From: Mytilus edulis
Taxonomy: Eukaryota
Reading direction: 5' to 3'
DNA length: 64,000 bases
Assembly: GCF_963676685.1 (NCBI RefSeq)
Contig: NC_092347.1
Location: forward strand, 11,036,001-11,100,000
This document shows, one piece after another, positions 11,601-59,400 of this stretch. The translations under genes and the position numbers were made by a program. The notes under the pieces were generated by a model. The model did not search any database and was not told the origin of the DNA. It saw only the letters and a program-made list of their open reading frames with translations. Numbering within the stretch: the stretch's first letter is position 1; every line of letters starts with the position of its first letter.

Positions 11601-13806
11601 TGAGAGCACAAAAAAAAAATATAATTACATGCTTTTTACTGTCCTATGTACTTTGCCTCAATTTTAAGTAATATAACAAAATAAATTATTATATACAAAT
11701 TCACAATTGTTTCTTTTCAGTGTTTTTCTTCAACTTCATCCTTGGTCTATCAGCGGTATCTACCATACTACAAGTACTTGTTATTAATTTGTATTACCGC
11801 GGTGAAAGAGAGGTACCTACTTCCTTGAAGTATTACATCATTAAACCTCTTTGTTATATCACATGTGTTCCAATACCTGGAGAAGATCCATCGTCATATT
11901 GTGGAAGAAAGGTAAGCCAATACATAAGGAACACATATATCTCCGTATAACAACAAATCATTAATTCCATGTTTTCATTTCATAAATTACATTAATTAAT
12001 AATTCCCTACAAAAGATACATATGTGTTACTAAATAATACGGAAGTTTCAGTTAAAGTTACGTGATACCTAAATTTTAAAACAATTAGAATATGTTTTAG
12101 ATACTTGAATAGCATACTATAAAACAAGTGTAAGCGGACTTCCTTGTTACAGAAAACCCCTTATGTTCTCAAAATCTTCAGAAGTGTAGTGTTATACAGT
12201 TCTTTCGTCGATTTTTTTCCCGTAGGGACAGACTTTAACTACGAGACTTCTTTTATAAATCAACTACTGCACAGCACAAGTGTGTGCATGTGGGTAAAAC
12301 CGTTATGAAATATTATGAAAAAATGTGCATGGAAAGTAAATAGTCATAAAAGAGGGACGAAAGATACCAGAGGGACAGTCAAACTCATAAATCGAAAATA
12401 AACTGACAACGTCATGGCTAAAATGAAAAAGAAAAACAGATAAACAATAGTACACATGACACAACAGAGAAAACGAAAGAATAAGCAACACAAACCCCAC
12501 CAAAAACTAGAGGTGATCTCAGGTGCTTCGGAAGGGTAAGCAGATCCTGTTCCACATGTGGCACCCGTCGTGTTGCTTATGTGATAACACATCCGGAAAT
12601 AGTCTAATTCGGTAGGTCACATTCATGAAAGGGAAGGGGATTGTAGTTACGACGTAAGGAACATATCCGATATCATTTGTGAAACGGTTATTCTATAAAG
12701 GTCAACCAACTCGTGATGGCGTCCGTAAAAGTTACGAAGGGATGATTTCAACTTCACCATTTGGAACTCTTAGTTTAATAGCTTCCTTGTGAGCAGCAAC
12801 CATCTATCAAGAAAATCATGATAGGAAATGCAAGCATGGGAATATCGTATCAATTGGGATATATATACCCCGTATGCAGGTGCCGCTGGAATGTTGCTAC
12901 TTAGAAATGGAAAGTTCACAATTGGAAAGCTGAAATCATATCTTTTGTCGTAAAGTTTTGTTTTCAACCGACCCTCATTGTCAATTTCTAGATGTAAGTC
13001 AACTGATTCGTAAAGAACAAATCTTAAAAACCAAAGCATTTAACAAGTGTTGTTGAAAAGTTTAATAAACAAATGGGAATGCACGAAAGATGAAAAAATT
13101 AGATCGTTCTATTAATTTGATTATTTTTGTCGTGCTCTACAATTTTGTGTTGATTGTTTATCAGTCACAAGCCGGAATATTTCTTCAACAATATCGAACT
13201 TTAATAAAACCTCAGTAAAAAAAACCTGATTGAAATATACTGTGTCATACGTTATTTATTCATAATGATTGTTAAAATAACATGAACAGAAGACTTATTT
13301 AAGTATATATACATGCATAAGTTCACTATTTTCTTAACGTTATAATTACAAAAATTTCTATTTATATGGCTGAAGAAAAGCTGAAGAATATGATTAAGAG
13401 AAAAAAAAATTTTCCTATGTTTTAATAGTTATCAAAGGTATAAACTTGTAAGCCTATACCGTAAAACAAAAAGAAAAACACCAAGAAATTGCCAAAACAA
13501 AAATTCAAACGGATCATAAGATTGACCGGGTGCTACTGCTATCCGAGCTTACTTTCACATCAGCTAAATACATATCATATTTAGCATATTTTGGAATGCT
13601 TCCTTCTATCACTTTTGTTTACAAAACAAGTAATCTATTTATTTCAGATCCAATGTTCCGATTTTACAAAGCCACAGGAAGCAACGAATACGGTGATGTG
13701 GCAAAGTTTTTCTATTGCAGTAGATCGGCTTGGCATTGTTTTGTTTTCATTTACTCTTGTCATTGGCATTGCTACAGTATTTAGACAAATGACAGGGAGT
13801 TTCTAA
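2663..13806 (+). CDS. Nicotinic acetylcholine receptor alpha-type subunit (alpha9/alpha10-like), cluster gene 1; 7 exons, ~411 aa
   Basis: Exons 2663-2723 (signal MDVKYYHLKSIICILALSLI), 4617-4750 (YDSGLRPVC), 6261-6305 (DEPNQIVRLNLWMRL, 45 nt), 9780-9889 (WNDC..WVPDLTLYDS, 110 nt), 10923-11458 (Cys-loop CPIEVLNFPFDTQIC, FGSW, loop C YSCCPAPY, TM1, TM2 GEKVSLVITVMLAMSVFQL), 11721-11911 (TM3, MX), 13648-13806 (WQSFSIAVDR, TM4, TAA). All introns GT-AG and in phase; total 1236 nt. Confidence 0.95.
3643..3830. repeat. Minisatellite, ~30-40-bp unit, about 5 copies
   Basis: Repeats of TATCTTATTCAGATTTAACAATTATTGTCAGT, with the unit shortening in later copies. Confidence 0.9.
4184..4340. repeat. ~80-bp direct duplication
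   Basis: GATTGATAATAA..CCCTCAAGTTTGCGATTTG..GAATCGCTGCGCT occurs twice in tandem. Confidence 0.85.
7441..8140. mobile_element. TTAA-flanked MITE (Kolobok-like)
   Basis: TTAA|AGGGGCACTA ... TAGTGCTCCT|TTAA. Related partial copies at ~10170-10564 and inverted at ~33110-33700. Confidence 0.75.
12348..13002 (-). mobile_element. Penelope-like (Naiad-type) RT C-terminus and 3' end, 5'-truncated, in intron 6 of gene 1
   Basis: DLHLEIDNEGRLKTKLYDKRYDFSFPIVNFPFLSSNIPAAPAYGVYISQLIRYS is typical of the PLE RT thumb. No downstream GIY-YIG; the 3' UTR follows. Shorter copies of this 3' end occur at ~14858-15090, 17330-17545, 27310-27388, 31320-31520, 36340-37310, 43835-44040. Confidence 0.8.
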
Positions 13807-14311: not shown

Positions 14312-15681
14312 TCTAGTAATTATAGTGATTATTTGATTGTCAGACTAAATATTTCATGATTATATAATTATTTGATAATCTAGGACTGTATTTTTTATTT
14401 TCTGATTAAAACGCGAAATTAGTGTATGTAATTTACCTCGGAGTTCAGTATTTTTGTGATTTTACTTTTTTTCAACCATCATGACTGGCTAACAATACCC
14501 TTGTCATTACGGCATTGGTGTACGAACAATCAAATTCTCCAGCGAGAAGTTTTATGCAATCGATGATTAACGGCGACCCAGGACTGTCGTGAGTGAGTGA
14601 GTGTCGGGCGTCTGGCGTTTACACAAATCATGTAAATGGGTGCATTCTAAAAAGAAATTCTTTAATAGAAAAGGAATATCATGTTACTTGTCTCATTTAA
14701 AAAAAAATTAATTATTACTAGTAATGTGTATAAATATCGTTGTCAATTTGTTATTGACTCGTATTTTAAATAAGACCTTAAGTTGGTATCTTTAGCCTTT
14801 TATTTGTAAAAAAACAAACCTGATCATTGGTCTAACATTTGGCAAAGTAATAAGGAGAGGGTCAATCAAACTCGTATGTCGAAAAGACACAGACAACGTC
14901 ATGGCTAAAAGACTAAAAAGACAAATATAGAAACAATAGTTCACAAAATAAAACATAAAAAAACTTAAGACTGAGCAATACAAACCACACCAAAAATGGG
15001 AATGATCTCAGGTGCTCCGGAAGGATTCTGCACTATATGAGGCACCTGCCGTGTTGCTCATGTCATTTCAAACCCGGTAATAAGTCTTATTCAAAATCAA
15101 AGGAAGCAAACTTCATAAAAATCGTTCTTTTCGAGGCTTCCAAATTGAACTGATATTATACGATTGTCGTTTTAAGATACATAAAAGTGCAAACTGTTTA
15201 TGCTAACTGTACCGCTGTTTATCATTTTTGAAAATACATCTCTGTTTATGACTGACGAGAATAAATTTCTTGAAATATAAACACCAATTTCCCAGTTTAC
15301 ATTATATATATAAATAGATGACACACAATGATACTATTAAACGGTTAACCGCAATGGTTCGATCCACCATTTTCTACATAACAAAATGCCTGTACCAAGT
15401 CAGGAATATGACAATTTTTATCCATTCGTTTGATGTGTTAGAGCTTTTGATTTTGTCTTTGGAATCGGGACTTTCCGTTTAGAATTTTCTTCGGAGTTCA
15501 GTATTTTTGTTAATTTACTTTTAATTGTCTCTTTTGTTATTGAGAATTATAAGATATTTCACTTAAAGCATTCATAAGACAAACGTTATAGCAGCTGTTG
15601 ATTGTATATTAATATTATAGTATGTTGGAATTGATAGTAACATTATAAGTGTTGTAAAAATATCTTAACAATTGTAATTAA

Positions 15682-34122: not shown

Positions 34123-36398
34123 CAATGTATGACAACAGGTCTTTTTTTTTTGATAATTCTAAGAATGTATATAGTTTTCATGACAATAAATATGTATCAA
34201 TCAAAGAACGTCTGAACATGGTTCCATTGCAGGCGATGTGGGTTTTTTTATAAAAGAAGTTTCCAATACGTATGCTTTCGGAAAATAAAAGTAGCATTGC
34301 TAGCGTAAATGTATCTTAAGTGTGTTCGTAATAGTAGTCGTATGACTCGATGGTAAGAGTGGTACTAAGCATGAGGTTAAAACCTATGATATACTTTTGT
34401 GAATATCTCCTAAGACAACTCTTATAAGAATCTTAAGTACAACACGCAGGACTATACTTACAGTTGTTTTGTGAACCTGATCACTGTCTGTAATACAAAT
34501 TGGTAATGTCCCGTAATTGTATATAAATATAAAATATGATTTAATCAAGTTTGATCTATATTAATGTGACGCAACACTATAGGTTCATCCAAAATTAACA
34601 GACTACCGAAAGATAGTCTGTGGCAGAGCAGATTTAGTAATGTGTTGTATGCCCTCTTCCTTCAATCCACAGCATACACTAAACTAAACCATCTCTTGTA
34701 TAAGGAATTAAGTTATAAAAGTAAAGTATAACAAACACAGAATATGATATCGAGAAAATGTCTCGAAAACGTGCAATATTTTACTGCAGTAAATCCATTG
34801 CAATTAATGTTGCTGGGTAGTTGGTACAGAGACTAGTGCGGTTAAATGTAACACAGAAGACACATGTTCTCTCTAGGTAAGTGGGGCTAAAAAACGATAT
34901 CGTCAGGAAGAAGCCTTGTATATTAAAATTAGAACATAAAAGTTACCAAATGATTTTGATGATTCCATTAGTATGTTATAGTGTGACACTCCATTCCAGT
35001 CACTTGTATCTATCAAGACAACTTTGTGGCTTACAACAAAGCATGCGTGTCAGTTGTTTCATCTTACGATAATCAGAAAATTGTTATGGTCTGCATAAAA
35101 TTTTGGTGAGCAAAAGACAATTAACCGTGATTATGTTGTTTCAGTTTGTTATTCGCATACCTTATGCAGATCGTAAACGTTCTTTACCGCTCGGGTTCTC
35201 ATATAATTAATTAGCTTAAGCAATCTTCACATTTGACTACTAGTTTTTTTTATTTTTTCTCATTAGTTGTTTGATATTATGAATAAAATACTTCAAAGCT
35301 CAGTTGTCTCTCAACAAAACCTAGGTAAAAGCCTGAGACCATAATTACATTTACCGGGCAATATCTACTGTACTGAATTGTCTGTGTCAAGACGCTTGAA
35401 AATGCAGACAGGTCCGTTTCAAAATGTTCTATTTTACACTACTTTCAAGTTGGAAGGCATAGTCTCTTATTAAGTAAATATATTTGTCAATTTGAACATC
35501 CCTGGGTTTTTTTTGTTGAGATTGAGTTGATTTATTCTTGATAAAAAAAAACTGTCTCAGTTTCTTTGTCTCGCCCAGTAATTTCTCCTTTAGTTACTCG
35601 ATACTTAATGATGATTGTGTGGTGTGAATTTAAATTATGTTCTGAATAATTAAGGTTCAAATTCCTGCGTGTACAATTAACTAAATTACTTTCTGGTCAC
35701 TTTGTCTCATTATTTTCAATACTGCACGTTGGTCTAATTCAGTATTTGCTGTCTGGACATTTAAAATGAATACGTATCTTTTTCTTTCTGTTTTTGTTTT
35801 GGAAATAGAAATAGACTGCACCAACCTTAAATGAATGTTACCTTAATGTAGCAGAGACCTGGATTTCTCACAGAAGTAAACACAACAATACCAAACAATG
35901 ATACTAAGTTCTCATTGTACATTTTTTGTATCGATACTACCATTTTGCAAATTCTGTCAAAGTTATATTTCAAATTGGTCAGATATAAACTAAAAAATAA
36001 AATTTGAAACCCGAAGTATTTTAGTTAAATATTGAAGTACTTTTTGAAAGTAGAATGAAATTGGTACTACCTTTTAATTATAAAAATGTCTATTACCTTA
36101 ATTAAGATCAGGTTATTAAGAGTTTTCAAATGTTTTAAATACTTAAAAGAACCAGCCTTGAAAAACCGAACAATAGAACAAAGCAGATTTTCAATAATTA
36201 TCGAAATGAGTATCAAGCGTTATCAATAGGATGACTTTATTAAACATTGATGGTTGACCGTCATGGAATGTCGGTGTCACTAAAGACCAAATATATTATT
36301 TACTAAATACGATTCGATCTTTTTTTACTCGATTGTAATTTGAGATCACACCAATATTTTGGTGAGGTTCGTTTTGCTCACATTTAACCCGTTTATGT

Positions 36399-37185
36399 TG
36401 ATGATATGTGGGTTTTTCTATCCGACTATCCTGTCTGGATATTGCGGACTTTCTACTTATTGTCTGGTTCTGATTCAGTTGACCGTTTAGCTTTTACTTT
36501 GTTTCTAGGAGTGTGATAAGGTGTATCTGGCCGTTCCAAGAACATAAGTGCTGTTGTAATTGCCTCTGGAGATGGCATCAATAGTGGCGATGTGTGAGGT
36601 GGTGTCCGGAGCAACTCGGGATCATCTAGGTCGAATCCCTCGTCATAGTCGATCCGACATCGCTTGCCTCTGTCTTTAGTTGGCTGGAGATAGTATTGGC
36701 GATGGCATGCCTTCCTGGGGTTGTACGGACTGATGACAGTGTCCGTCTTGATGAAAATGCCCTCAGGTTCCCCTTGATATTTTGTGGGTACTATCTCCCT
36801 GCTTCCCTCTCGTGCTGGTTTGGCTTCTGTCTGTTGGTTCTGGTCTACCTTGGTGGTGTGTGGTATGACCTCAGCCGATGTTGCAGCAGAGCTTTTTGCC
36901 TGCACCCACTGGTTGTAACGCTTGGCGTACCTTCTCCTGGTGGATGGTGGTTTACTGTTTTTCAGGACCGGCTTGGCTTTACTGGAGGATACCTCTTGTT
37001 CCTTAGCCTTGGTCCACGTCAACTGTACTGTCACCTGGTCAGTACTTGCCGAGAACTTCCAGGCAGGTTCTTTTCCAGTCAACTTCATGGCTGCTAACAA
37101 AGCATTCAATTCATCGGGGATTTCCATGATGATTGTCCAAAAAGTGAGTGAGTTGTGTTAAGCTGTGATCAGTACGAATACATCA
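36399..37185 (-). mobile_element. 787-bp ORF-bearing inserted cassette with 13-bp TSD and TGATG...CATCA termini
   Basis: AACCCGTTTATGT at 36386-36398 and 37186-37198. Removing the insert and one copy restores a continuous Penelope-like 3'-end repeat fragment. GC content visibly higher than the flanks. Confidence 0.85.
36453..37127 (-). CDS. Intronless 224-aa protein of unknown function inside the 787-bp cassette
   Basis: Uninterrupted ATG-to-TAG ORF filling 675 of 787 bp. Predicted small folded N-terminus (LNALLAAMKL..WKFSAS..VTVQLTW), basic KPPSTRRRYAKR motif, Pro/Ser/Thr-rich C-terminus. Confidence 0.7.
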   Translation of the reverse strand: MEIPDELNALLAAMKLTGKEPAWKFSASTDQVTVQLTWTKAKEQEVSSSKAKPVLKNSKPPSTRRRYAKRYNQWVQAKSSAATSAEVIPHTTKVDQNQQTEAKPAREGSREIVPTKYQGEPEGIFIKTDTVISPYNPRKACHRQYYLQPTKDRGKRCRIDYDEGFDLDDPELLRTPPHTSPLLMPSPEAITTALMFLERPDTPYHTPRNKVKAKRSTESEPDNK

Positions 37186-37787
37186 AACCCGTTTATGTAT
37201 TGTTTTGTGGTCTTATTCAACTTTACGTTGTCAATTTTGCAATGCCATAATCGGTTTCCCTTCCACTTGTATGTTTGTTTTAAATGTCACAACGTTATCT
37301 TCTAACTCTCTTTCACATAAATATGCACAAAATGTATAGGTCTTATTAAAAGCAACGTGCATTTACTCGACAACATACGTTATCCTTATTATTTTCTAGT
37401 TCATTAATTTTCTAATTACCTTTATTTGATTTCCTGTGAATTTTTTTTTTATCTATGCACCAGTATAAATTATATCAAACCATATCCCATATATTAAGCG
37501 TTGTTATATAACAATGTTCATGAATGTTTAAATTTATAAATAATTTAAACTGTCTATGACCTTGCCTACGATGATGGTTTTCCAAATGTTACCATTGAAC
37601 AGACCATATATATACAATGCATACAATAGATAAAAAAATTAAAAAAATGTTTTGGAATTCCAGCGTGATTGATCCTGTTGCTACTACCTACATGTCTTTC
37701 GTCCCTAAATAAGTCACTCGTAGAGGTTTTGCATCAGAGAATGATTTAGATCATGTTGAAACACTCATCGTATTTTTGTATTTCTAG

Positions 37788-40700
37788 CTGTTTTTTGTAC
37801 TACAAGCCCTGTGAAGAATGTCAGTGATGTGATATTTGCAGACTATGATAGCAGCTTAAGACCAGTATGTAATGGGACTACACAAGTTAATGCTACTCTA
37901 GGCATTGCACTGCGACAAGTTATAGAATTGGTATGTTATATAACAGGCTACTTCTGATAGTTTGTAGAGTAGTGTTAAATGAAGCCAAACAGACATCGAA
38001 AAAAAGTAAAATCACAGAAATACTGAGCTCTGAGGAAAAACGGAAAGTCCCTTATCAAAATTAATGGTAAAACACATCAAACGAAATGATAGCTTCAGAC
38101 CGATTTCTAAAGCAAATCGATGCAGATTTCTAGGTTAAAATACACTTTCAATAAGCTAGTCAATCAAAGAGGAATAATAATCATTCATATCTCAACAGAT
38201 TATACTTCGTTTGTGGTGTCCTTGTGTAATGTCGTAAATTCATGGCAGATGTCCGTTATTGATTTTCAGTTTACATGTTGTAATGCACTATTATATCGTT
38301 CATTTATGTATTTCTCTGTCCTCAATGTACTTACGTTTATTTAAAACTTGTACTGTATTCCTGCCACGCAGTGTTAGTATTTTAACGTATTCTTAACATT
38401 GCCATATAAGCAGGAGCTTTGGTTAGCTATAAAACCAGGTTCAACATAGTATTTTTTCTTAAAACGACCTGTACCTATTCCTAAATATGGCAAGTGTTAG
38501 CAAATATAGCCCGTTTCTATGTATGTTGTGTTTTTTCTTTACTTTTGTTGCAGTTCAGTTTTTTCTGTTTTCTATTGTTTTCCTATTCCAGTTGGTGTGT
38601 TTCCCTCGGTTTTAGTTTGTAACCCGGAGTTGTTTTCGCTTAATCGATTTATGACTATTGAACAGCGGTATACTACTATGGCTTTTATATATTATTGCAG
38701 TCTATTTTACTAAATTTACTAAAATATTGAGCAATAGAGCAGATCAAACAATCCATCAACACCCGACTTCCAAAACAATGATCAACAAACAAAAAGAGAA
38801 TATAACAGAGAGCAAATAACAGAGATAGACTGACTTGGTATACTAAACATTAAACGTGGCTTACTCCCGTTTTATCTTATAATATCTGTAAAGATTATTC
38901 ACTTGTTTTACAGGACGAGCCTAACCAAGTTATAAAGCTTAATTTATGGATACGTCTGGTATGTTTTGTTCTAACTATGAGCATTTCAAATCGTTTGGGC
39001 ATGAATGGAAACATTTTTGGAAATCGGTTAACACTTTAACATGATAAATACTTTCACCCTTGTAAACTTAACAACAACACAATTCAATATTTGACCGATA
39101 CATGGCTCTAGCATTTACACATGGCTGATTGTACTTATTAAATAAATAAAAGGAGGGATCGACAAAGTGTATATATAATTTAAGTATCACGTGCATCGCA
39201 TGAAAATGAAATATATGGTATGGTATGTTGGCATCTTTGATGATAATTTTCTTCTTATTATTAAATATAAAAAGATGTGGTATGAATGCCAATGCCAACA
39301 GTTCTAAATCAAGTCATAATTTGTAAAAATAAACAATTATAGGTCAAAGCAATGAAATGCCATGAAAATAAAAACACATATTACTCCTAAGTTGAAATAA
39401 TTCTTGTAAATTTTTGAATTATGTTCCATATTCATTATAAATGCAGTGTCGCTTTGATTAATAATAATATATGAATGTTTCAGAAATGGAATGATTGCCT
39501 TCTTCAATGGGATCCAAATGATTTCGATGGAATAACTAATATAATCGTACCTTATAAAAAGATATGGGTGCCCGACTTAACCCTTTATGACAGGTAAAAT
39601 ACAGTCCTAACTGAAAGTTTCACAGTCATGACGTAAATGCCTCTACAGCTTTACATACGGTACTATTTCAATGCAGTAAATGTTTTACCCATTTAATTCA
39701 AATGCAAGGGGCGATGTGATTTTCGTTGTCGGCTCAGTTGTATAAAAATATAGCATAGTACCTTATACCTACGATTATTTTACAATTTTCTTAGTGTATA
39801 TTTATAAAATATATTCAATTAAACTCATACCTTTTGCAAACTTTATGCAAACGTTGCACTAACGAACGTGAAATTTCTCTATAAACTTGATGGCATTCCG
39901 TTTCGCGTGTCAGGATTGCACAAATAAAAACATCCCTTCTTTCATTTGACCAAGCCTGACAGCCCTTGGTGTGTTATACTTCAAGAACACTCTTTAAAAA
40001 TGCATTATCTATTATAACATATTGCTTTTTAAATCAATGAACTAATTTTACAAAGTGTAGCACTATCAGATCAATATATTAAAATAAAAATACACAAAAA
40101 TTTATATGAACAGATAAAACCTTTACATTGTTTGTATTTTTACCACTTACTATTATTTTGACTTTTGGGATTTTTATTTGAAATGCATGCACATGTGTAC
40201 ATAAAACAGGGTAAAATTTTATGATTATTTGTTTTGATGGAAAACACTGTCAACTTCCGTTTCAGTATTTCATCAGAGTTCTTTGGATTAGCAGATTTCA
40301 GACCAACTATTTACAATGATGGATCAGTATATTACAACTTCCCAACAGTTATTGAAGCCTTGTGTCCAATTGATGTTGCAAACTTCCCTTTCGATTCACA
40401 AAAATGTGAGTTGATTTTTGGTTCTTGGGCTTATCATGGATTTTCTCTAGACTTTTCTCCAAGATCAAGTGCTGTCGATTTATCATCAATGAAACAAAAC
40501 GTTGAATGGGAGGTTCCGCAACTAACCGTAGAACGACACGTTGTTTATTATGGATGCTGCCCAGAACCATATCCAGATGTTACATTCTACTTTTATCTGA
40601 AAAGAAAACCAGCTTTCTACGTGACGAATATAATTATACCGTCGATTATGATTACGATATTAGTGGCCCTTGGATTTATACTTCCGGTTAGTTCCGGTGA

Positions 40701-47600: not shown

Positions 47601-50600
47601 CGTTCCAAACCAAATTACAGTCAAACCAGCCCTGTGTGAATGATGAAGGTTGTGTAGTAAATACATGTATTAATTAAAATGAAGAGGTTTAATTTGCATT
47701 TAAGTCAATAATGGAAATAATATAAATGATTAAAAAAAGGAAACACATCAGACAGGCTTATTTGTTTTATATGGTTGCTCTTTGTTATTTTGCTGTTTCT
47801 TTTTTCACTATCTATCTACTGCTCAGAAAAACAATTATATAGTTACCCATCGCATCCATGCACTGAGTACTAATATTTGTTCTGGTTCGTCCTACAACAA
47901 AGAAAACAATAAAGGTAGAGCTATTATAGTTTTGCCTTTCGTGAAATTACAATGTACACAGGTAAGCGAGACTGGGCAATTTTTTGTTTGCTCCGTGTTG
48001 AAGCACTGTGACTTTGATATGACGAAAAGCAATAAAAGCGCTGTTCCTTTGCTTTTTGTGCTATATCCTTTTTTTTATTATGTAATTGATATTAGAATAC
48101 CACACCTGGCTATTGCAAGTGTATCATTCTCAAGAGTTGAATAATCATGTACTGGTAATTCATTTTGCCTGGTCATCAAATTTAAATTTGGTACTGGCTA
48201 TTTCCGACAATCCAAACAATGTAAATTATGAATAATATTCCTTCTTAACTTTGCTTCTGGTTGTTTTGTTAGCATCATTTCCAGAGGTAAGTTTATTATT
48301 TTTATAAATAAATTATGTATGAAAACATGCAATACTTCTACGACAGAATATAAAAGTTCTAAAAACCTTCTAAGGTAAAGAAGGGGGGGGGGGGCGATTG
48401 AACGCTCATATTATACCCTACCACATTCGTTTTGTGCATGTCCCATTTATCAAGAGTCTGTATCTCAGTGGATATTGTTGGTTCCTGTATTTGTTTTTTT
48501 ATTTGCTTTCAACATACTAGTATTAAGAACGTTTTAAAAATAGCTTATTGTATGGTATTGAACATTAACTTACCAAATTGATCAGCTGACGTATTACCAT
48601 GTCTATGGTAACAGTGACCTTATCTGACCCTTCACAGTATGGAATCACGCTTGATTCATAGTTGTCTCCGATATCAAGTGACAAATTTGTATAACCGGCG
48701 TCCATACCTACATAAAGACATTTAGTAATTTAATTTTTAAATTGTGTTTCCGAATTGCATTTTTGGGGTTAACCTTCATCAAAAACACTCACATATAATA
48801 AATAAATGCAACCTTGGATTCGTAATTATTTGCTACTTGAGGTCCAACTTTGCCTGAATGATAAAATTTTGTGCTTCCTATATTTGTCGATGGCTAAACA
48901 AGAGTAGGATTTGAGAAATTGAAGAAATTGTATGCATAAATAAATAGTTTGCTCTGTTCGCTTTATTTTTTGGGGATAAATGTTCGAGATTGTACAGATT
49001 CATGTTATAATGATATGAGCAAAACAGAAGCATAAAAGCTAAATATTGTGAACGTCACATTGGGTTGTTGCAAAATTTAATTTTGAGGAAAACACTGTTT
49101 TTATAAACCGAAAATTTTCGATCGAAATACACTATTAAAATCGCGCAGGGCCTCTTTTTACACAAAAATCTTACAATAATATCGATCGTAAGTTATACTA
49201 AACATTTTACTACTTTCGAGTATATTTTTCGCGTAATTTTTTTGTGAAATGTGGCCAATACCTCCAGACTGATAGTCTAACAGCATAGATTCTGATTCGA
49301 CAATCATTGATGCATGAACATTAACAGTCCCGTTCCCGAGAAAATTTACCTCACACTAAAATACGATTAATTTACCTCGGAAATTAAACGAAGCTTGATC
49401 TTCTGTTTCATTGTCTTCTAGATTTACACTGTTATTTGAATTCATTCGAGTGGTTGTCATTGGAGCAGTTGACGTCAAATACGTAGACGTTTTGACATCA
49501 GTTGTATACGTAGACGTTTTGGCATCAGTTGAAGTTTCAGTCGTCATGCAAGAATTTGTCGAAGTATTTTCATCGGCTGTTGATAATGCTGCAAGAAAGG
49601 TAAATTATATCCTAATAAAATTTGTCACCCCTTTTGTTGGTCTTTTGACACTCAACTAAAATACAACCAACTACCTCGACACTATCCCAGACAATAAAGA
49701 AAGCATTAGGACTCCCCATGAGAGGCGGCATACAAACTACCCTATCTTGGATCCCAGGTCAGAGTTTTATAGCCGGGAACAAACTAGCGGACCTATTAGC
49801 AAAAGATGCATCACAGAAGGCCCCAAGTCTTCAGGACCAGTACAACGTCATAACAATGTCAGATGTGAAAAGTGCAGTTAAGATGTCAACAAAACTTAAA
49901 TGGCAAATTAGATGGACTAGAAGTGAAACTGGGAGACAACTACATGAATTAGTTCCTATATTGTAGGTAAGACCCATCCACTTAATTATCAAAATCCAGT
50001 TATAAGGAAAACCAGGACAATTTATAACAGGCTACAATAAAATAAATAAATACCGCCATCAGATAGGCCAATCCCTTACGCCATACTTCGAGTGTGGTGA
50101 AGAAGAAAGCACAGAACACTTCCTACTTAATCGTACGAGATAACACCAGGAAAGAGAAGAAATAAAAAGACAGCTGGAGAAACAAAACATCACAATAGAA
50201 CTTCAGATCTCCTTCATGCCACCAACAAAGACAGAGAGATACGAAAGAACAGCGGGTATAATAAGAGTGTTTAAAAGAGTTCAGGGCAATTCTAAGATAC
50301 ATTTAGCCCTAAAGAATTCCAATCCTGCGCCTAAACAAATTAACCTAAGCATAGAGTGTGACATAACTCAGAGAAACTATAGTACCGAGATGAATTAAGC
50401 TAAGTTAAACGCAAAGTCACCAGTTGTGTTAAACTACATGCACATATTGACCTAAGGATTAGAATGAGAATAATAAGGTTAATAGATTTACATATTTTAT
50501 ATTTCATTTTATTTTTATTGTTAGTTCTTTGCCACTAAATTAGAAAAAAAATCAGGAAAGAGCTTTATAATCTCTGACTCTCTCTATTTATATGAAGACT

Positions 50601-53172
50601 ATGCTAGTACGTATGGTGAATTACTTGTACGAGCACTTGTTGTGCTGAAAAATTGTAAATACATGTATAACATTTCCTGTTTTGGGAAATGATGGACATT
50701 GTGACCGTGTATGTTGTACTTTTCCAAGATATTCAAGTATTCTCAATTTCAGTGGAAACGCAGTCAGTCACAAATGTACTTGTGTAGAATGTAGGACAGT
50801 ATGGTTTTGGTTTTGGTTTTCATTTTACTGTAATTCACATAAAGCTGTTCAGAAAACAAATTAAAATGAAGTATCAAATAAGCCGCAAGACATACTAAAA
50901 AAAAATCAATCGTCTTAATATTCGAGAAGGTTAATGGTTGTATTGAGTCATTTTTCATGTTAAGTTTTATTATGAGTTGTCTCTCATATATGGCTCAAAT
51001 ATTCTTATATATATACTAGAACACACCCGTGATATCGCGGGTCTGTGACTGAATTAAAGAATATAACTATGCGTAAGCCTTATTTTAGTATTGGTATTGT
51101 CATTTGATAAAGTCATGCCGATTATAAGTCTAAAGATGCACAGTTTTCTCTGCTTTCACCATCTTTCTTTTTGAACCCGTCGACCTAGAACTTATCAATT
51201 ATTGGTATTATTAATTTTATTTGGAAGACAAAAGGGCCTGGAAAGGAGTATAATTTAATTAACAGCATTGGCCTTTATGAGTTATAAATAAAGTTGAATT
51301 CTTTGATTTGCTGTTTTACGTCATTCCGGCTAACAAATTGAAAACTGTACATGCTGTACCTATACGCCTTATTTTAAGTCCAGATTTTTATTATTCGTAT
51401 TGTCATCTTAGAAAGAGTTTTCTCTGCTTTCACAATCTTTCTTTTTGAACCCGTCGACCTAGAACTTATCAATTATTGGTATTATTAATTTTATTTGGAA
51501 AACAAAAAGGCCTGGAAAGGAGTATTATTTAATTAACAGCATTGCCCTTTATGAGTTATAAATAAAGTTGAGTTCTTTGATTTGCTGTTTTACGTCATTC
51601 CGGCTAACAAATTGAAAACTGTACATGCTGTACCTATACGCCTTATTTCAAGTTAAGTCCAGATTTTTATTATTCGTATTGTCGTCTTAGAAAGTCATAT
51701 TGATTAAAATACTAAAATCGGAAACAATGTAACAATGATCAAATTAAGTAGTGTCAACCCTGTGATGACAAACCGTGAATATAGCAAAATCCAAAGTACA
51801 GCGTTTGGTGGTGCGCCTGTCAGATGCGGAACGTACAGATAAGGTAATAGGTAACAGGTTAATATACTATTGGTATCGGTATCGGATTCGACCCGGAACT
51901 TCTTAATTATTGGCAATATTAATTATGTGGAAAACAAAAGGATCTGGAGTGGTGCAATTTTTAATCAACAGCATTGTACTATATTAGTTATATATAAAGT
52001 TGAATTCTTTGATTCATCGTTTTTACGTGATGACGGCTGACAAATTGGACCTCGTCATTTTAGTATTACTAGAACACACCCGCGAAATCGCGGGCATTCA
52101 GAGCGGAGTTAAAAGTATGTAAAGTGTTGTTAGAAGTTTTATACCTCCTCCTTCATTTCCAAAATTCCCAATTTTTGGTTTTCTATCAATTTCAATATGA
52201 ACATACATTTAGTATGTTATGAACATTTAAGTAAGGAGCCTGTAGTTCAGTGGTTGTCGTTTGTTTGTGTGTTACATATTTGTTTTTCGTTCCTTTTTGT
52301 ACATAAATAAGGCCGCTAGTTTTCTCGTTTGAATTTTTTTACATCGTCATTTCGGGGCCTTTTAAAGCCGAGTATGCGTTATGGGCTTTGCTCGTTGTTG
52401 AAGGCCGTACGGTGACCTATAGTCGTTAATTTCTGTGTCATTTTGGTCTCTTGTGGAGAGTTGTCTCAACATGGCAATCATACCACATCTTTATTTTTGT
52501 AATCAATGAATTTTGTAAAATATTTAATGAATGGAGAGTTTCAGAAGAAGGTATCAAAAGTTCACATGAATAGTTTTAGCGCTTATCTGTATATTACTAT
52601 ATAAATAAAGTGTATTTACTTTCAATTATTAGTTTAGTAATCGATCCATGGTGGTCAATTGACATAGTATACAGACCCTCTCCATTTAATAAACTCTGTA
52701 CAGAATTAAAATACACTTTATTCGTACTATTTGTTTGTTCAAAGTATACAGAAAAACGCAAACCGGAAGTATAATCTGACTTAAAATTTCGTCCAATGAC
52801 GGGACAATATCCGGATGCCTTTTTTCTCGTTTTTCTCCAAAAATAACTCAATCTGAATAATCATATGAATGGATGACAAATGCGACTATGCACTGTACAT
52901 ATAGGACACAGAGTCGTGTTGATTAATTTATTGTGGAAAGAAGAGAAGCGACACCAAAAATGAGGTCTTCTCGTTTAATAGTATAGATAGATATAACGCA
53001 AAAAGTGCTATCCCCTTTGACAACGTTAGAGACTGGATTGGTTTTTTTTCAATTTTCGCCGGCGTATAAAATTATAATAAACTAAAATATGAATTATTAA
53101 ATGTGTATACAAAAAAATCTTACCTTGTAACATCAAAACATAGAAAGCAAGAAAAACTTTTCTCGAAAACAT
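44645..53172 (-). CDS. nAChR alpha-type subunit with Ser/Thr-rich N-terminal extension, cluster gene 4; 8 exons, ~490 aa
   Basis: Exons in transcript order: 53172-53124 (MFSRKVFLAFYVLMLQ), 49588-49376 (S/T-rich, phase 1-1), 48707-48574 (YESSVIPYC), 47891-47847 (DEPEQILVLSAWMRW), 47631-47522 (WFDC..WMPDITLYES), 47205-46670 (CQLDVSRFPFDSQIC, YGCCPEPY, GEKIGLQLT), 45942-45752, 44839-44645 (WMYLSVILDR, TAA). 1473 nt, open throughout. Confidence 0.92.
46027..46072 (+). ncRNA. Type I hammerhead ribozyme motif (retrozyme fragment), intact core with damaged stems
   Basis: GAGCGTCA-CTGATGA-GTC-GTTTGCA-TAC-GAAAC-GTGT-GTC-TATCTT. Flanks resemble the 24051-24528 repeat. Confidence 0.65.
46106..46270 (+). 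mobile_element. tRNA-derived SINE inserted in a (TA)n tract inside the retrozyme fragment
   Basis: A-box-like GGTGGTCGTGTGGTCTAG and B-box GGTTCGAATCCC at ~46182, followed by a non-tRNA body. (TA)n on both sides; retrozyme sequence resumes as ATGATGAGTCTATT near 46297. Confidence 0.75.
49660..50410 (+). mobile_element. 3' fragment of an RNase H-bearing LINE (I/Nimb-like), decayed
   Basis: WIPGQSFIAGNKLADLLAKDA (RNase H C-terminal WxPGH..GNE.AD.LAK motif), WQIRW, and a decayed zinc knuckle (ECGEEESTEHFLL). Contains stops and frameshifts. Confidence 0.8.
51016..52991 (-). mobile_element. Non-autonomous Helitron containing a second nested Helitron (52069-52987)
   Basis: On the minus strand both elements begin TC (TCTA/TAATACTAAAATGACGAG and TCTATACTATTAAACGAG) and end hairpin + GTGTGTTCTAG (CCCGCGATATCACGGG; CCCGCGATTTCGCGGG). 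The inner element sits at an A|T site. Outer element has an internal ~280-bp duplication around 51140-51690. Confidence 0.8.
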
Positions 53173-53428: not shown

Positions 53429-56400
53429 ATGTTTATCAAACAGAATTTGGCAAGCATAGCAATATTGGCGTTTATATTTTTGTTGAAAATCGGTAAGTAA
53501 TAATTATTTGTCATATTTGCAATTTACCTCTTCTGTTATTTTTTAATATTGTATATATAATTTATCTGTCTCATCCGAATGCTCCTACACCGGTTGGAAT
53601 TACGGAAGAAGTCGCCTACTTACTATAAGTGCTGTTCGGTGTGGGCCAAGGCTCCGTGTTGAAAACCGTACATTGACCTATAATGGTTTACTTTTATAAA
53701 TTGTGACTTGGATTGCGAGCTGTCTCATTGGCACTCATACCACATCTTCCTATATTTATGAAAGTCTGTTTTGTTATGCACAGACATTAAGCGTTATAAT
53801 AATTTGTATGCAAATTTTATAGTTTTAATAAACTCATTATAACATTTCTATCAAATTCTCAAAATTTTCAACATATTTATCAAAAATTGCTTTTATATTT
53901 TGTATACTAAAGCAGTTCTGCTTTTGGCTATTTTCAGTTTTTGTTTTGAGCCTGAGACTTCTGTCGCAAAAAGCGAAACTTGAAAGTGATCCGACTGGTT
54001 TAAACACAAGACCTTAACAAAGTTTCCTCTTCCATTATCAAATCTAACAGTAGCTGGTATTTGCAATATCTATTTACAAATTAAAACTATGTTCATCTAA
54101 GATATTTAGAGTTTATGATGTGATAAGCTCCTGACAAGGCCTCTGACAGGATGGTAACATAAAAAAGAAGATGTGGTATGATTGCCAATGATACTGGCCT
54201 TGAACTCTTCTAGTGTAGCTGAAGTTGTGGCTTTTTCCGATAAAGTGCTCCATTCCCTAGTTGATACTGGGGAGAGGTGGTACATGTATCTGTGTTAGTC
54301 TTTGAGAATACGCTGTTGGTGTATGCGATGTCGATACCTTTAATTTGCTGGTGGACTATCATTCTTCTTCTTCTTCTTCTTTAGTTACCGAATACCATCA
54401 ACTTTTTGAGGATTACTTTCTGTAGGCCCGAGGATATCATCAGCCCAGTAGACAGTACTTTGGTACTGCCATGATTTATAACCAACTATCTAAAACTGTC
54501 CGTTTATAGATTTTTAAATTATACAGACACTTCCTCAGGCAAAGTTGGCATCAGATGGATTAAGTTATTTTCTTATGTCCTTTTTTGGTTTATAGCTCTT
54601 CAACATGTTTGGTCCTAATGCATCCTTGGCTTTTAAATATTCGGCTTTGAGTCTTTCTGGTGAAGATAAATTCAGCAAAACGTCTCGAACGCATTGATTA
54701 TAGGTTTTACAGATCTGTTGAAGTGGACTAAGAAAATGTTATCTAATTTTAGATTTAACAGATCAGAAGTTATTGAACAAGGAAAAGAATGATAGAGCAT
54801 CTAAAAGTGACGACTCTTCTACAAACACAGCAAATATCAACGGTACTGTATGATTGACACAAATCACTGTTTAAAGCGTCTATTTCCTCATATATTATTT
54901 ATTCATATAAAAAAGTTTAAGAAAAAGAAGCGTAACAACCTTAAAATATTAATAACGCAATTTTTTATTTGAATAAACAATTACTTTGCTAAATTTTACG
55001 GTAAAATCCTCAATTGACATTGGTCACGTCGACATCAGATGTCTACATACTGAATTGCCTCAATCCACAAATTAATGTTTGATAACATTTGTAATACAGA
55101 AAAATTGAAATAAAACATCACATTTAATAAATAACACATAGCTGAGAGGGTGATATATAGCAGATTGGTACCCCGAGAAAACATTGTCAACCGCGGCAAA
55201 GCCAAGGTTGACAATGCTTTTTCGATCGGTGGCAATCACCCTCTCAGCTATGTGTTATTTAATTTATTATAGTATACTGAATGTCATATAATTATTGTCT
55301 TTTACAGATCAATTTTATTTAAAAGTGTTTTCTATAACGTGAAATATTTACATAACAACGTTACGTCAAATAATAAGATCTGAGCCAAAACGTAGAACTA
55401 GTATTTTTAATTACTTGATGTAAATTCAATTTATCGTCCTTTAAATTACCGATTTTTGATTGGTCTGGACGAGAGGGTAACTAAAAAAATTGTCACCCGC
55501 TCAGCCATGTACATTGTACATTGGAGCAGTAAATTAACATCCTCGTCTTAGCCAATCAAAATATGGCATTTTAATGTGACGTAAAATAAATCCAAATATT
55601 ATCAACAATATACAACAGATTGAGGACGTGGGGATAGTGATCCGGCGGCGGCGGCGGCGGCGTTAGCTGACTTCTTAAAAGGTTTATATTTTAGAAGGTG
55701 AGAGACCTGGATGCTTCATACTTTGTATATAGATGCCTCATGTTACGAAGTTTCCGTCAGTCACATGTCCAATGTCCTTGACCTCATATTCATGGTTCAG
55801 TGACCACTTGAAAAAAAAGTTCAGAATTTTTGTAATGTTGAATTCTCTTATTATAAGTAATAGAATAACTATATTTGGTATGTGCGTACCTTGCAAGGTC
55901 CTCATGCCCGTCAGACAGTTTTCACTTGACCTCGACCTCATTTCATGGATCAGTGAACAAGGTTAAGTTTTGGTGGTCAAGTCCATATCTCAGATACTAT
56001 AAGCATTAGGACTAATATATTTGGTGTATGGAAGGACTGGAAGGTGTACATGTCCAACTGGCAGGTGTCATCTGACCTTGACCTCATTTTCATGGTTCAG
56101 TGGTTATAGTTAAGTTTTTGTGTTTTTGTCTGTTTTTCTCTTACTTTATGCAATAGGTCTACGATATTTGTTGTATGGAATGATTGTAAGGTGTACATGT
56201 CTAGCGGGCAGATGTCATCTGACCTTGACCTCATTTTCATGGTTCAGTGGTCAAAGTTAAGTTTTTAAGTTTTGGTCTTTTTATCTAATATTATATGCCA
56301 AAGGTCAACTATATTTGGTGTATGGAAATATATTATGATCTGGTTTTATTTGACCATGACCTCAATTGCACGGTTCATTGCACAGTGTTAAGTTTTTGTG

Positions 56401-59400
56401 TTTTGGTCTATTTTTCTTAAACTATAAGTAATAGGTCAACTATATTTGTTGTATGGAAGCTTTGTTAGCTGTACATGTCTGCCTGGCATGGTTCATCTGA
56501 CCTTGACCTCATTTTCATGGTTCATTGGTCTTTGTTTAATTAATTAGCTATCTTGGTTAATGTTAAGTTTATGCGACAGTTGTAATAAAGCTTTATACTT
56601 AGGACTATCAACATAATATCAATGATAAGTAAAGAAGGCGAGAATTTCAATTTGTGCACTCTTGTTTTTTTTTGGGAGGGGGTGTACAACAGAAGATAGA
56701 CAAAAGAGACATTAACTTTAAAAAGAAATGAAAATTGAAATATTAAAGATTTATCGATTCTATATAGGCCAATATATTAAGTAAAATGTATCATTATATT
56801 TAATAATTGAATGGCTATTATTTATTTTTGGATTTATTGCTTCGCGGATTATTCAATGTCAAAGTCAAAAAATAATTTTATGGTTTTATTGTCATTCATT
56901 ATAAATAAATTTCGATCAAAAATAAGGCTCAAAGAACTTTTTATATTATTTATTTTAACAATAACAACGTACACACATGTTGGCGTATGAATACACAACG
57001 TCAGAGTGGGCGTGTCGCCATAAAAATTGACAACATTGAAAATAAAAGTAATACTTTTAACCAATCAGAAGACAGTAAATTCACCAAATTTTTTTATTGT
57101 AGAATTAAGTTTTGTCTCTTTTTCTAAAGTAACATTCTTTCACTTGTCAACATTTGATTATAATTTCAGAAATCATAATATATTATTAACATTTTTCCGA
57201 GAAGTGGAAGTGATTATTTATAGTATAACTAATCGCCGTATTTGAATATCAAAAATAAGACAACGCGTGACCGAACGACGCATGGATTAAACGAGTGCGC
57301 AGCACGAGTTTAATCCATAGCGGCGTTCGGTCACAAGTTGAGTTTAATCCATAGCGGCGTTCGGTCACAAGTTGTCTTATTTTTGATATTCAAATACGGC
57401 GATTAGTCATTCTTTTTATTACATTGGCAAATGGCTTTTTTTTTATGAAATTAATGTAGAAAATGTAAGGAACTATATCTTTTTCCTACGCATTGACAAT
57501 TTGTTTTGATCAGACGTTATCGACGTCTTGACATCGCCTATTGTTGTATGACGTCAGAGAGTGAAATAACCACGTTTATTTCACATGTGAAATTATCGGT
57601 TTTTATTTAACTGGGAAATCAATGTAATTCATTGCAACCAATGTAATAAAACTCCTTCCCAGTCAGTTTCATAATTCAACCAATTCAGAATATTCACTGC
57701 AGTCGGGAAAATTAACTACTGTAACAGTACTGTATAGTATTACTGGCTGACTTCTTAATAACATCATGTCAACAAGTTACAAACAAATATATTATACAGA
57801 ACATAAAAAGGCTTTCATACGTTTATATGGACTTAAACATAAAATTCCATTATTCCAGGTGAGGCCTCTTTGTTAGCAAATTTAACGGCAACAATATTAA
57901 CCAATTATGACCAAGCACTCTTACCGAAATGTACCGGACGGGAGCAAGTACAATTAGAAATAAAAATGGCCGTAAGACAACTCATATTACTCGTAAGTAC
58001 ATTATACATCCTCTTAAAGTTCATAGTTGTTTCAGTATCATCGACTTTATATTCATCAAAATTAGTATTAACTGATGCACCGTTGTAATATTTGCAGAAC
58101 AAAGCAATATTAGATCTATATGGTTATTGGATGAATATTTTGGAATATTGTCCCGAGTAGAATTTTATATTGCACGAGCGCTTGCGAGTGCAATATATGT
58201 TCTACGAGGTACAATATTCCCCAATATTCATGCAATAACCCTTCTATTGTATAGCAATATAATATTTGTAAGTAAAAAATGTTTAAACTAAGAATTTGAC
58301 GTCATGAATTTTGAAGATTTATTGCATTAGAGCAATATCGTAATTTATTGCACGCTAACTTTTGGTTACTTTCTGTGGGAACTAGTGTATGCTATGCAGA
58401 AATAACCGTTTTATTTCTGTTACAAGAAAATACATTGTTAAAAATACAAAATGGACGTGTTTTCTTTATACTATTAACATCCAAGTAATAAGGCTGACAC
58501 TATTTTTAAAAATAGATACGTAAAACATTATCATGGTTAGTACTGAGACAAAGGCGGAGATAACCAGATAGAAAAGGACAAACTAGACATTGGGAAACGT
58601 GAAAAAGACCAACAACAACTCCCAAAATATAACCATAAACAGTTAAGATTGAGGAATACGAACTCATGTTATTCGAACACGAATAGAAACTTTTCCATTA
58701 TTGACATCTGTTGTTTTTCAAGTGCATTAAAACATAAAATAAATGTAGCAACAACAAACGGACTAATCAGTGGTAAAACAGGTATGTCTTCATATCTTTT
58801 TCATGACGAACTCTTCGTTTAAAAAGTAAAATCACAAAAATACCGAACTAAGAGGAAAATCAAATCGGAAAGTCCCTAATCACATGGCAAATAGACTACT
58901 TTCGAGTTCATCCGTCACCGGAAAAATCTCGTCAATTATACGCGCCTTTATGACGTCATTTACCAGATAGAGGGGGTCGCCTGTATCCCTGCACTATTTA
59001 CTTTCATCAAGCGTCTTGGTGATCGTCATTGTGCAGGATAAACTAGAAATAATGGTTGTTCTGTAGGTACTTAATGACAATTCCCTAATGACATCAATGC
59101 TGATTGTCAATTTTGAGAATTCAATTTGTCGTATAATTCGTACAATAGAATTATAGTTTTCCAACCACTCGCTCAACATTGGAATGGAAGTGACGACGCC
59201 CCTAAACGCACAAATGACGTTCACTAAAACCAGAGTTTTTGACGGAAATGCATCGAACTCGAAAGTTGTCTATTCAAATGACAAAACACATAAAAAACGA
59301 ATGGACAAGAATTGTCATATTTTTGACAATATTATAGATTCCTTGTGAGCTGATTGTTTTCGTCAAATGTATTGTGTAAGAGACATTGGCTGCATTTTTA

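Follow-up and report, generated by a model that had tools for sequence, protein, structure and literature searches.

In the mussel Mytilus edulis, a compact GC-rich sequence with a single long open reading frame (ORF) is found within a tandem cluster of ligand-gated ion-channel genes. The stretch analysed here, hereafter the window, comprises 64,000 nucleotides of AT-rich animal DNA (assembly GCF_963676685.1, contig NC_092347.1, positions 11,036,001 to 11,100,000 of the forward strand), and all coordinates are counted from its first letter. The element lies on the opposite strand, in the gap from the end of one channel gene, whose last exon is at about 34.0 kb, to the next, in which the first exon recognisable as ligand-binding is at about 37.8 kb. 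Two copies of the exact 13-bp repeat AACCCGTTTATGT, at 36386-36398 and 37186-37198, enclose 787 bp, in which an uninterrupted ORF on the minus strand (37127-36453) encodes 224 amino acids; measured between the repeats and the ORF, the leader is 58 nt and the trailer 54 nt long, and no poly(A) is present at the 3' end of the element. These features had been listed in a preliminary description of this DNA, and each was recovered as it had been given there. When the bases of the element were shuffled 5000 times, only two shuffles gave a stop-free run of at least 224 codons, and its GC content (47.8%) exceeds that of all remaining 1-kb bins in the window (25-37%).

Exact repeats of at least 13 nt at a spacing of 100-3000 bp are observed 158 times in the window (56 times outside three tandem arrays), and the 13-bp repeat alone is therefore unremarkable. 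The insertion is nevertheless taken as real, because the repeat brackets a 48% GC island with a shuffle-rare ORF, and because excision restores an alignable repeat. With the insert removed, the rejoined flanks align over the junction with three further instances of the repeat in the window (E = 6e-9, 5e-8 and 2e-5 by blastn; weaker by nhmmer, E = 0.07-0.4), one of which encodes a reverse transcriptase end. A GC-rich, ORF-bearing piece is thus inserted into an older repeat fragment, as the preliminary description had proposed, leaving a left half (36250-36379, plus strand) and a right half (37199-37315, plus strand), the latter collinear across the junction with 12349-12521. The split repeat and its copies in the window are presumably of the Penelope/Naiad type, with the left half as a Penelope-like 3' end. 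Naiads are reported to be abundant in Mytilus (PMC8557442).

The boundaries of the element differ from those first suggested, which were a target-site duplication (TSD) of 13 bp and terminal inverted repeats (TIRs) of 5 bp, TGATG...CATCA. While the exact core of the TSD holds, its full length does not, as the direct repeat continues beyond the core and reaches 19 bp, two of them mismatched (17/19, 89%), at 36380-36398 and 37180-37198. The copy at the 5' end of the element consists of the 13 exact bp (37186-37198) and 6 bp that contain both mismatches and the TGATG of the supposed TIR; the copy at the 3' end has its exact core at 36386-36398, and the neighbouring CATCA falls within a few ATC units, a short (ATC)n run. 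Four Mytilus-type proteins (P0008, P0020, P0013 and P0081) have N-terminal extensions that read through the leader. Those of P0008 and P0020 are in register with it, and TGATG cannot be encoded at that place in either of the two; those of P0013 and P0081 are out of register or diverge earlier. Hence TIRs common to copies, as in a TIR transposon or a miniature inverted-repeat transposable element, were not found, and TGATG...CATCA are probably not the termini of the element. P0008 and P0020 match the leader from about 37179 (up to 37182) and differ further upstream, and the true element would thus measure approximately 781 bp, from 36399 to about 37179-37182, with a leader of about 52 nt (37128-37179, minus strand) that begins with ATTCGTAC and possibly starts up to 3 nt further out. 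The six bases at the 5' junction are either a mutated part of the duplication or filler added at insertion. Five proteins of a distantly related family, described below, share a 5' boundary of their own that is compatible with AYTCNGA, upstream of which they differ.

The 3' tail of the element contains a two-tier hairpin (36420-36449, minus strand), with an outer stem GTCCG/CGGAT, an internal loop and an inner stem TATCC/GGATA, followed by a AAAAACCC box and the short (ATC)n tail (36399-36419, minus strand) from which CATCA derives. The hairpin noted earlier is confirmed by folding (z = -4.1 and -4.2), as none of 200 shuffles was as stable in each of two tests, and it may serve as a recognition signal for a reverse transcriptase. 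In its two other frames the trailer reads ..SAISRQDSRI.. and ..SPQYPDRIVG*KNPHII, and 34 of 92 proteins end in a SAIP-like or CPQY-like peptide that corresponds to one of these two frames. For 21 longer tail peptides an equally good match was observed at 0-3 of 20000 random window sites. In a fairer comparison, five peptides were ranked over the whole window in both orientations, and the trailer came out best for three, tied best for one and tied second for one. Intersecting the two frames in eight pairings yielded one consistent DNA, with no conflict in four pairings and one conflict in the other four. The reconstructed tail of the distant family has an outer stem TCCG/CGGA and an altered inner stem, and then TAARAC, which is reached in 7 of 8 pairings; the ORF of this family continues into the terminal hairpin itself. 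As both frames agree on one DNA, the 3' RNA signal is retained in a family whose proteins are only about 30% alike.

This layout resembles that of Nimb-type long interspersed nuclear elements (LINEs). Two bivalve Nimb tails (PMC11481361, Suppl. Fig. 1), compared by eye, are built like the tail of the element, with an outer stem, a short purine-rich loop, an inner hairpin, the outer stem again and TAAA(A)CC, a layout not seen by eye in the CR1, CR1-Zenon and L2 tails of the same figure. Moreover, CGTAAAAC is common to one Nimb tail and the distant family, and GAAAGTC together with AAAACCCA is common to a partnered short interspersed nuclear element (SINE) and the window. Tail stem-loops with compensatory changes are considered the mark of a LINE partner in PMC4824008, and the I-group clades of molluscs are Nimb and Ingi according to PMC10294476. 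In the Mytilus rows of Suppl. Table 2 of PMC11481361, all 11 Meta SINEs end in ATC or ATCA and 10 of the 11 are assigned a Nimb partner, and in the same paper bivalve SINEs have TSDs of 6-18 bp. A Nimb or other I-group LINE is accordingly named here as the likely partner of the element.

The protein was characterised with structure models and family alignments. Two AlphaFold models agree on a helix with a beta-hairpin (residues 1-40), a long basic helix (61-83), a disordered QT linker (84-110) and a three-stranded beta domain (about 112-177), after which a proline-rich and basic C-terminus follows; the mean predicted local distance difference test (pLDDT) score is 61, and residues 121-170 reach 74-89 in the second model. 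Residues 41-83 contain 11 lysines or arginines, the basic motif [SP]P[SA][TS]RxR is the best-conserved part of the protein (71 of 88 aligned proteins), and S/T-P sites are numerous in this product of a GC-rich element. Pfam has no family for P0001 or for 29 aligned members, giving only single-member coiled-coil or weak matches; the ESM Atlas, searched twice, returned nothing usable, and a sequence search of the PDB nothing significant (best E = 0.3-0.7). The AlphaFold models had no match at E <= 0.001 in BFVD, PDB Foldseek or VIA-align, the best structural Z-scores (3.3 and 3.2) falling on single helices or a small sheet; these searches used whole-protein models, with no domain folded alone, and are therefore no evidence of a new fold. 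The viral structures of BFVD were compared with a low-confidence model, phage genomes gave no match by tblastn, and a homodimer model of residues 1-85 was uninformative (score 0.08, alignment not used). Neither a CCHC knuckle, which the ORF1s of I-group LINEs usually carry, nor a YADD-like reverse transcriptase motif is present in any of the 88 aligned proteins, and no transposase or recombinase is found among the relatives from all protein and profile searches. The element thus has a single ORF without reverse transcriptase. The linker is characterised in the distant family by TQT, which, itself or as a close variant, is also present in 4 of 5 further divergent singletons tested and is retained in some Mytilus subfamilies. 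TQT is the anchor motif for the dimerisation hub LC8, which is required for silencing guided by PIWI-interacting RNA (piRNA) in Drosophila (PMC7919418). On the opposite strand, a stop-free antisense frame of 155 codons (36630-37097, plus strand) has no Pfam match.

At 96% identity, a protein of Mytilus edulis comes nearest to the ORF, and 27 matches of similar length were found (16 from M. edulis, 8 from M. coruscus, 1 from M. galloprovincialis and 2 without species), many of them broken or mis-spliced and frequently frameshifted. Seven longer M. edulis gene models join parts of the ORF to domains that have no relation to it, namely multicopper oxidase, Ig, amine oxidase, Sushi, C-type lectin and Ty3/Gypsy reverse transcriptase, the Ty3/Gypsy polyprotein model carrying an ORF fragment at its end; none of the seven contains a non-LTR (long terminal repeat) reverse transcriptase. 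Such fusions are expected where insertions within introns are taken up into predicted genes. In all, the public Mytilus models P0026, P0027 and P0029-P0035 (integrin alpha-4, ENAH, HEPH, OBSCN/TTN, MAO, CSMD, C-type lectin) include portions of the ORF, and they are probably chimeric annotations. By these protein matches the family is multicopy and dispersed, and is present in three Mytilus species. No description of it was found in the open-access literature, PMC11203168 included, a search that did not cover names in Repbase or Dfam.

A profile search gave 65 matches, and a second one, with the N-terminal domain, gave 97, of which 67 were new and are JGI or ENA proteins of 164-260 amino acids; their clusters hold up to 88 members, which may be repeated samples and not copies. 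Two members are doubtful and are given no weight, namely P0085 (E about 1e-4 in the first profile search) and P0090 (about 8e-4), their low E-values in the second search being circular. The exact 224-residue protein is absent from the cluster collection. Distant relatives are about 33% identical to P0001 in the N-domain and 25-36% in the C-terminal half, about 30% overall, and retain the whole architecture in the order W..V.L.W, SPSTRxR helix, QT linker, TPTKY, SPY, FDxDxP, RPxTP and basic end; five counted motifs occur in 71, 39, 36, 46 and 37 of 88 proteins, many of the rows being truncated or frameshifted. A tree of the N-domain, with weak support, shows a Mytilus group, one large other group and, besides these, a number of long branches with a single protein each. 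The N-domains of P0008 and P0012 are close to that of P0001 (66/74 and 63/74), while their C-terminal halves (65/110 and 64/110) are no nearer to it than those of other subfamilies. Near-identical N-domains with different C-terminal halves are seen in P0008, P0012, P0018 and P0025 against P0001, and in P0114, P0117 and P0120-P0122 against the P0076 type, which suggests module exchange or template switching between subfamilies in both families.

Taken together, the element has very probably been moved by LINE-driven retroposition, and it is probably a non-LTR retroposon, about 0.78 kb long, that is non-autonomous, codes for a protein and is copied by a Nimb-type reverse transcriptase. It would be transcribed by RNA polymerase II from a putative internal promoter in the leader, with a fixed 5' start, into an RNA whose 3' end, consisting of the two-tier hairpin, the AAAAC box and the (ATC)n tail, may derive from an I-group (Nimb-type) LINE. 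The structure and conservation of this tail are observed; the presumed partner LINE would supply the endonuclease and reverse transcriptase that bind it in trans, and target-primed reverse transcription, a mechanism established for LINEs, would then insert a full-length copy and leave a duplication of 13-19 bp. The preliminary description had favoured a protein-coding retroposon of this mode, a proposal strengthened by a multicopy, dispersed family and by a LINE-type tail that is conserved in distant relatives. More tentatively, at somewhat less than an even chance, the protein may be an ORF1-like ribonucleoprotein (RNP) helper, as proposed on account of its basic helix, the TQT/LC8 motifs of its linker, and the transport of I-factor RNA, which according to the title of one study reportedly uses the same oocyte machinery as gurken. 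It would bind nucleic acid through the basic helix, dimerise by means of LC8-type TQT motifs in the disordered linker, and bring its own RNA into the RNP of the partner and into the nucleus. A wider history is conceivable though a little more doubtful still: an old and so far undescribed lineage of retroelements, autonomous in appearance but without reverse transcriptase, may parasitise Nimb LINEs by means of the conserved RNA tail and with a protein not descended from a LINE ORF1, may recruit LC8 through multivalent motifs for RNP assembly or transport or to blunt silencing, and may have amplified independently in Mytilus and another animal, with swapping of modules.

The protein could instead be the ORF1p of an autonomous LINE outside Pfam, the element being an internally deleted I-group LINE that consists of promoter, its own ORF1 and tail, and thus a Nimb counterpart of HAL1 or Ag-Sponge. 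A class with its own ORF1 exists (PMC5786205), the tail of the element is Nimb-like, and as ORF1 and ORF2 are separate proteins, protein searches would be blind to a linkage with reverse transcriptase. However, no Pfam match was obtained, the characteristic CCHC knuckle is missing, and the ORF of the distant family enters the hairpin, where a LINE ORF1 would have a residual 3' untranslated region behind it; this origin is unlikely. Still less likely is the capture of a gene, either phosphoprotein-like from an RNA virus or a host gene, that acquired the tail of a LINE and spreads today as a selfish retroposon, its protein acting otherwise than in RNP assembly, for example in counter-silencing by titration of LC8. 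The disordered TQT linker between two small folded domains, the many S/T-P sites and the GC-richness give a layout that may resemble viral phosphoproteins, and LC8 is required for the silencing guided by piRNA in Drosophila (PMC7919418); yet no viral structure matched at E = 0.001 or better and no phage genome matched at all, an intron-bearing parent is not among the matches, and the motif is weak in the Mytilus copy. As to mobility, such a capture is compatible with the retroposon preferred here.

Two further explanations would change the mode of movement or deny it, and both are very improbable. An element moved by cut-and-paste or by a recombinase, for which TGATG...CATCA would be the true ends and the TSD 13 bp long, or a segment with panhandle ends, would account for an exact repeat bounded by a perfect 5-bp inverted match, but TGATG is not encodable in the two in-register copies and is covered by the 19-bp repeat, CATCA belongs to the (ATC)n tail behind a LINE-type hairpin, and the relatives lack transposase or recombinase. 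The panhandle or viral-segment alternative of the preliminary description loses its basis in the same way, as none of the readable copies has these inverted ends in common with the element, and it has no viral match. That numerous homologues are annotated as Mytilus genes would be explained by retrocopying of a normal host gene or by a plain multigene family; against this are the lack of poly(A), the conserved structured tail, the many frameshifted copies and the pieces absorbed into models of unrelated genes.

Several observations weigh against the interpretation as a Nimb-dependent retroposon. No second DNA copy, empty allele or partner LINE was found in the window or in GTDB, where scans with the tail pattern and with the protein gave no match, and the ends of other copies are deduced solely from translations. 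The 5-bp inverted match, with a chance of about 1 in 1000, is not fully explained. The tail peptides were selected by a motif spotted by eye, and a pattern test of the tail (1 match, 0 in 100 shuffles) is given little weight, being post hoc and placing GTCGG in a different structural register. The likeness to Nimb tails is one of motifs judged by eye. Each of the 28 Mytilus SINE rows in Suppl. Table 2 of PMC11481361 has an ATC-like or AGAT repeat at its end, and in one row linked to Nimb the repeat is AATC; with comparable repeats in the remaining rows, the ATC tail does no more than hint at Nimb. TQT occurs 94 times in 35 distant-family proteins (6.3 in shuffles, maximum 13), but in related and thus non-independent sequences, and the ORF at 36453-37127 itself contains QQT and no strict TQT.

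Elsewhere in the window, at least five ligand-gated ion-channel (nicotinic-receptor-like) genes are located at 4600-63400, four on the plus and one on the minus strand, with large exons at 10909, 31886, 40225, 46662 and 62762; five large exons match Neur_chan_LBD and Neur_chan_memb. In a decayed LINE relic at 49649-50330 (plus strand), which I take to be I-group-like, Pfam recognises a stretch of RNase H (E = 0.036), and the Cys/His knuckle is broken. The relic was considered as a partner and rejected, as its 3' end differs and folds no better than shuffles (17/200). The 3' fragment of a reverse-transcriptase element lies at 12349-13000 (minus strand), with shorter copies at 1570-1670 and 14942-15010. 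A very homogeneous 55-bp tandem array (59694-60573, 16 copies, 98% matches) is perhaps a young element-derived satellite, its unit resembling by eye a Penelope-like end motif that is also found at about 38420-38445. Other tandem repeats have units of 274 bp (2 copies, 51142-51694) and of 147 bp (4.2 copies, 55927-56530), the latter presumably a known bivalve satellite or Helitron core, and dense direct repeats 150-420 bp apart at 61475-62160 are not reported by Tandem Repeats Finder. A match to Rfam RAGATH-20 in the flank of the element is attributed to chance (E = 0.38, far under the gathering score).

Two kinds of short LINE parasite are generally distinguished, the SINEs, which do not code for protein, and remnants left by deletion that retain the ORF1 of their partner. 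A 0.78-kb element that combines a LINE tail with a protein of no recognised family, conserved over deep divergence, would stand between both kinds and could offer a compact system for asking what a passenger protein contributes to trans-mobilisation. Copies of a mobile element would also account for several chimeric gene models and for a group of Mytilus genes labelled 'uncharacterised', with consequences for gene counts and for studies of presence and absence in mussels.

LTR elements have TSDs of 4-6 bp and TG...CA ends, and Troyka has 3 bp and CG...CG, according to PMC12440569; a duplication of 13-19 bp fits neither an LTR nor a solo LTR, and Troyka was rejected on the same grounds. Non-LTR retrozymes and Penelope-like elements are non-autonomous retroelements that are likewise reported from Mytilus, and the target of the element is presumably a fragment of such an element. 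In contrast to them, the element has a long ORF and neither a hammerhead nor tandem pseudo-LTRs; no tandem repeat is present at the insertion site, and Rfam detects no hammerhead or other ribozyme in the element, although atypical hammerheads can escape detection. With the LP-SINEs of molluscs (PMC4758252), which have variable TSDs and a 5' head of about 70 bp similar to Nimb-17_LMi, it shares its shortness as a retroposon, a tandem-repeat tail and a 5' polymerase II promoter, probable in LP-SINEs and putative here, but section 10 of that source describes no protein for LP-SINEs, whereas the element encodes 224 amino acids. Its tail is like that of the Nimb-tailed bivalve SINEs (BivaV-SINE1 and the Meta SINEs), which according to PMC11481361 have a two-tier hairpin, an AAAACC box and a short-repeat tail, and its TSD falls in or near their range of 6-18 bp, while the stem sequence differs. 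Those SINEs have a tRNA head, measure 245-418 bp in Mytilus and are non-coding; in the element no tRNA, 5S or 7SL head was found (ARAGORN predicts no gene, and Rfam has no match at E up to 5 or at the gathering score), and a conserved family shares its ORF. The earlier view that the combination fits no class was overstated, as HeT-A (Jockey), HAL1 (L1) and Ag-Sponge (CR1) are known protein-coding non-autonomous LINE derivatives, whose proteins are thought to aid transposition (PMC5786205). In these three the protein is an ORF1p that belongs to a known clade of LINEs, and that of the element has no recognised ORF1 domain; the element is only about 0.78 kb long, and its apparent Nimb/I partner belongs to a clade that the cited passage does not mention. 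Like HeT-A, HAL1 and Ag-Sponge, however, it combines one ORF and no reverse transcriptase with a LINE-type 3' end and an apparent dependence on an autonomous partner.

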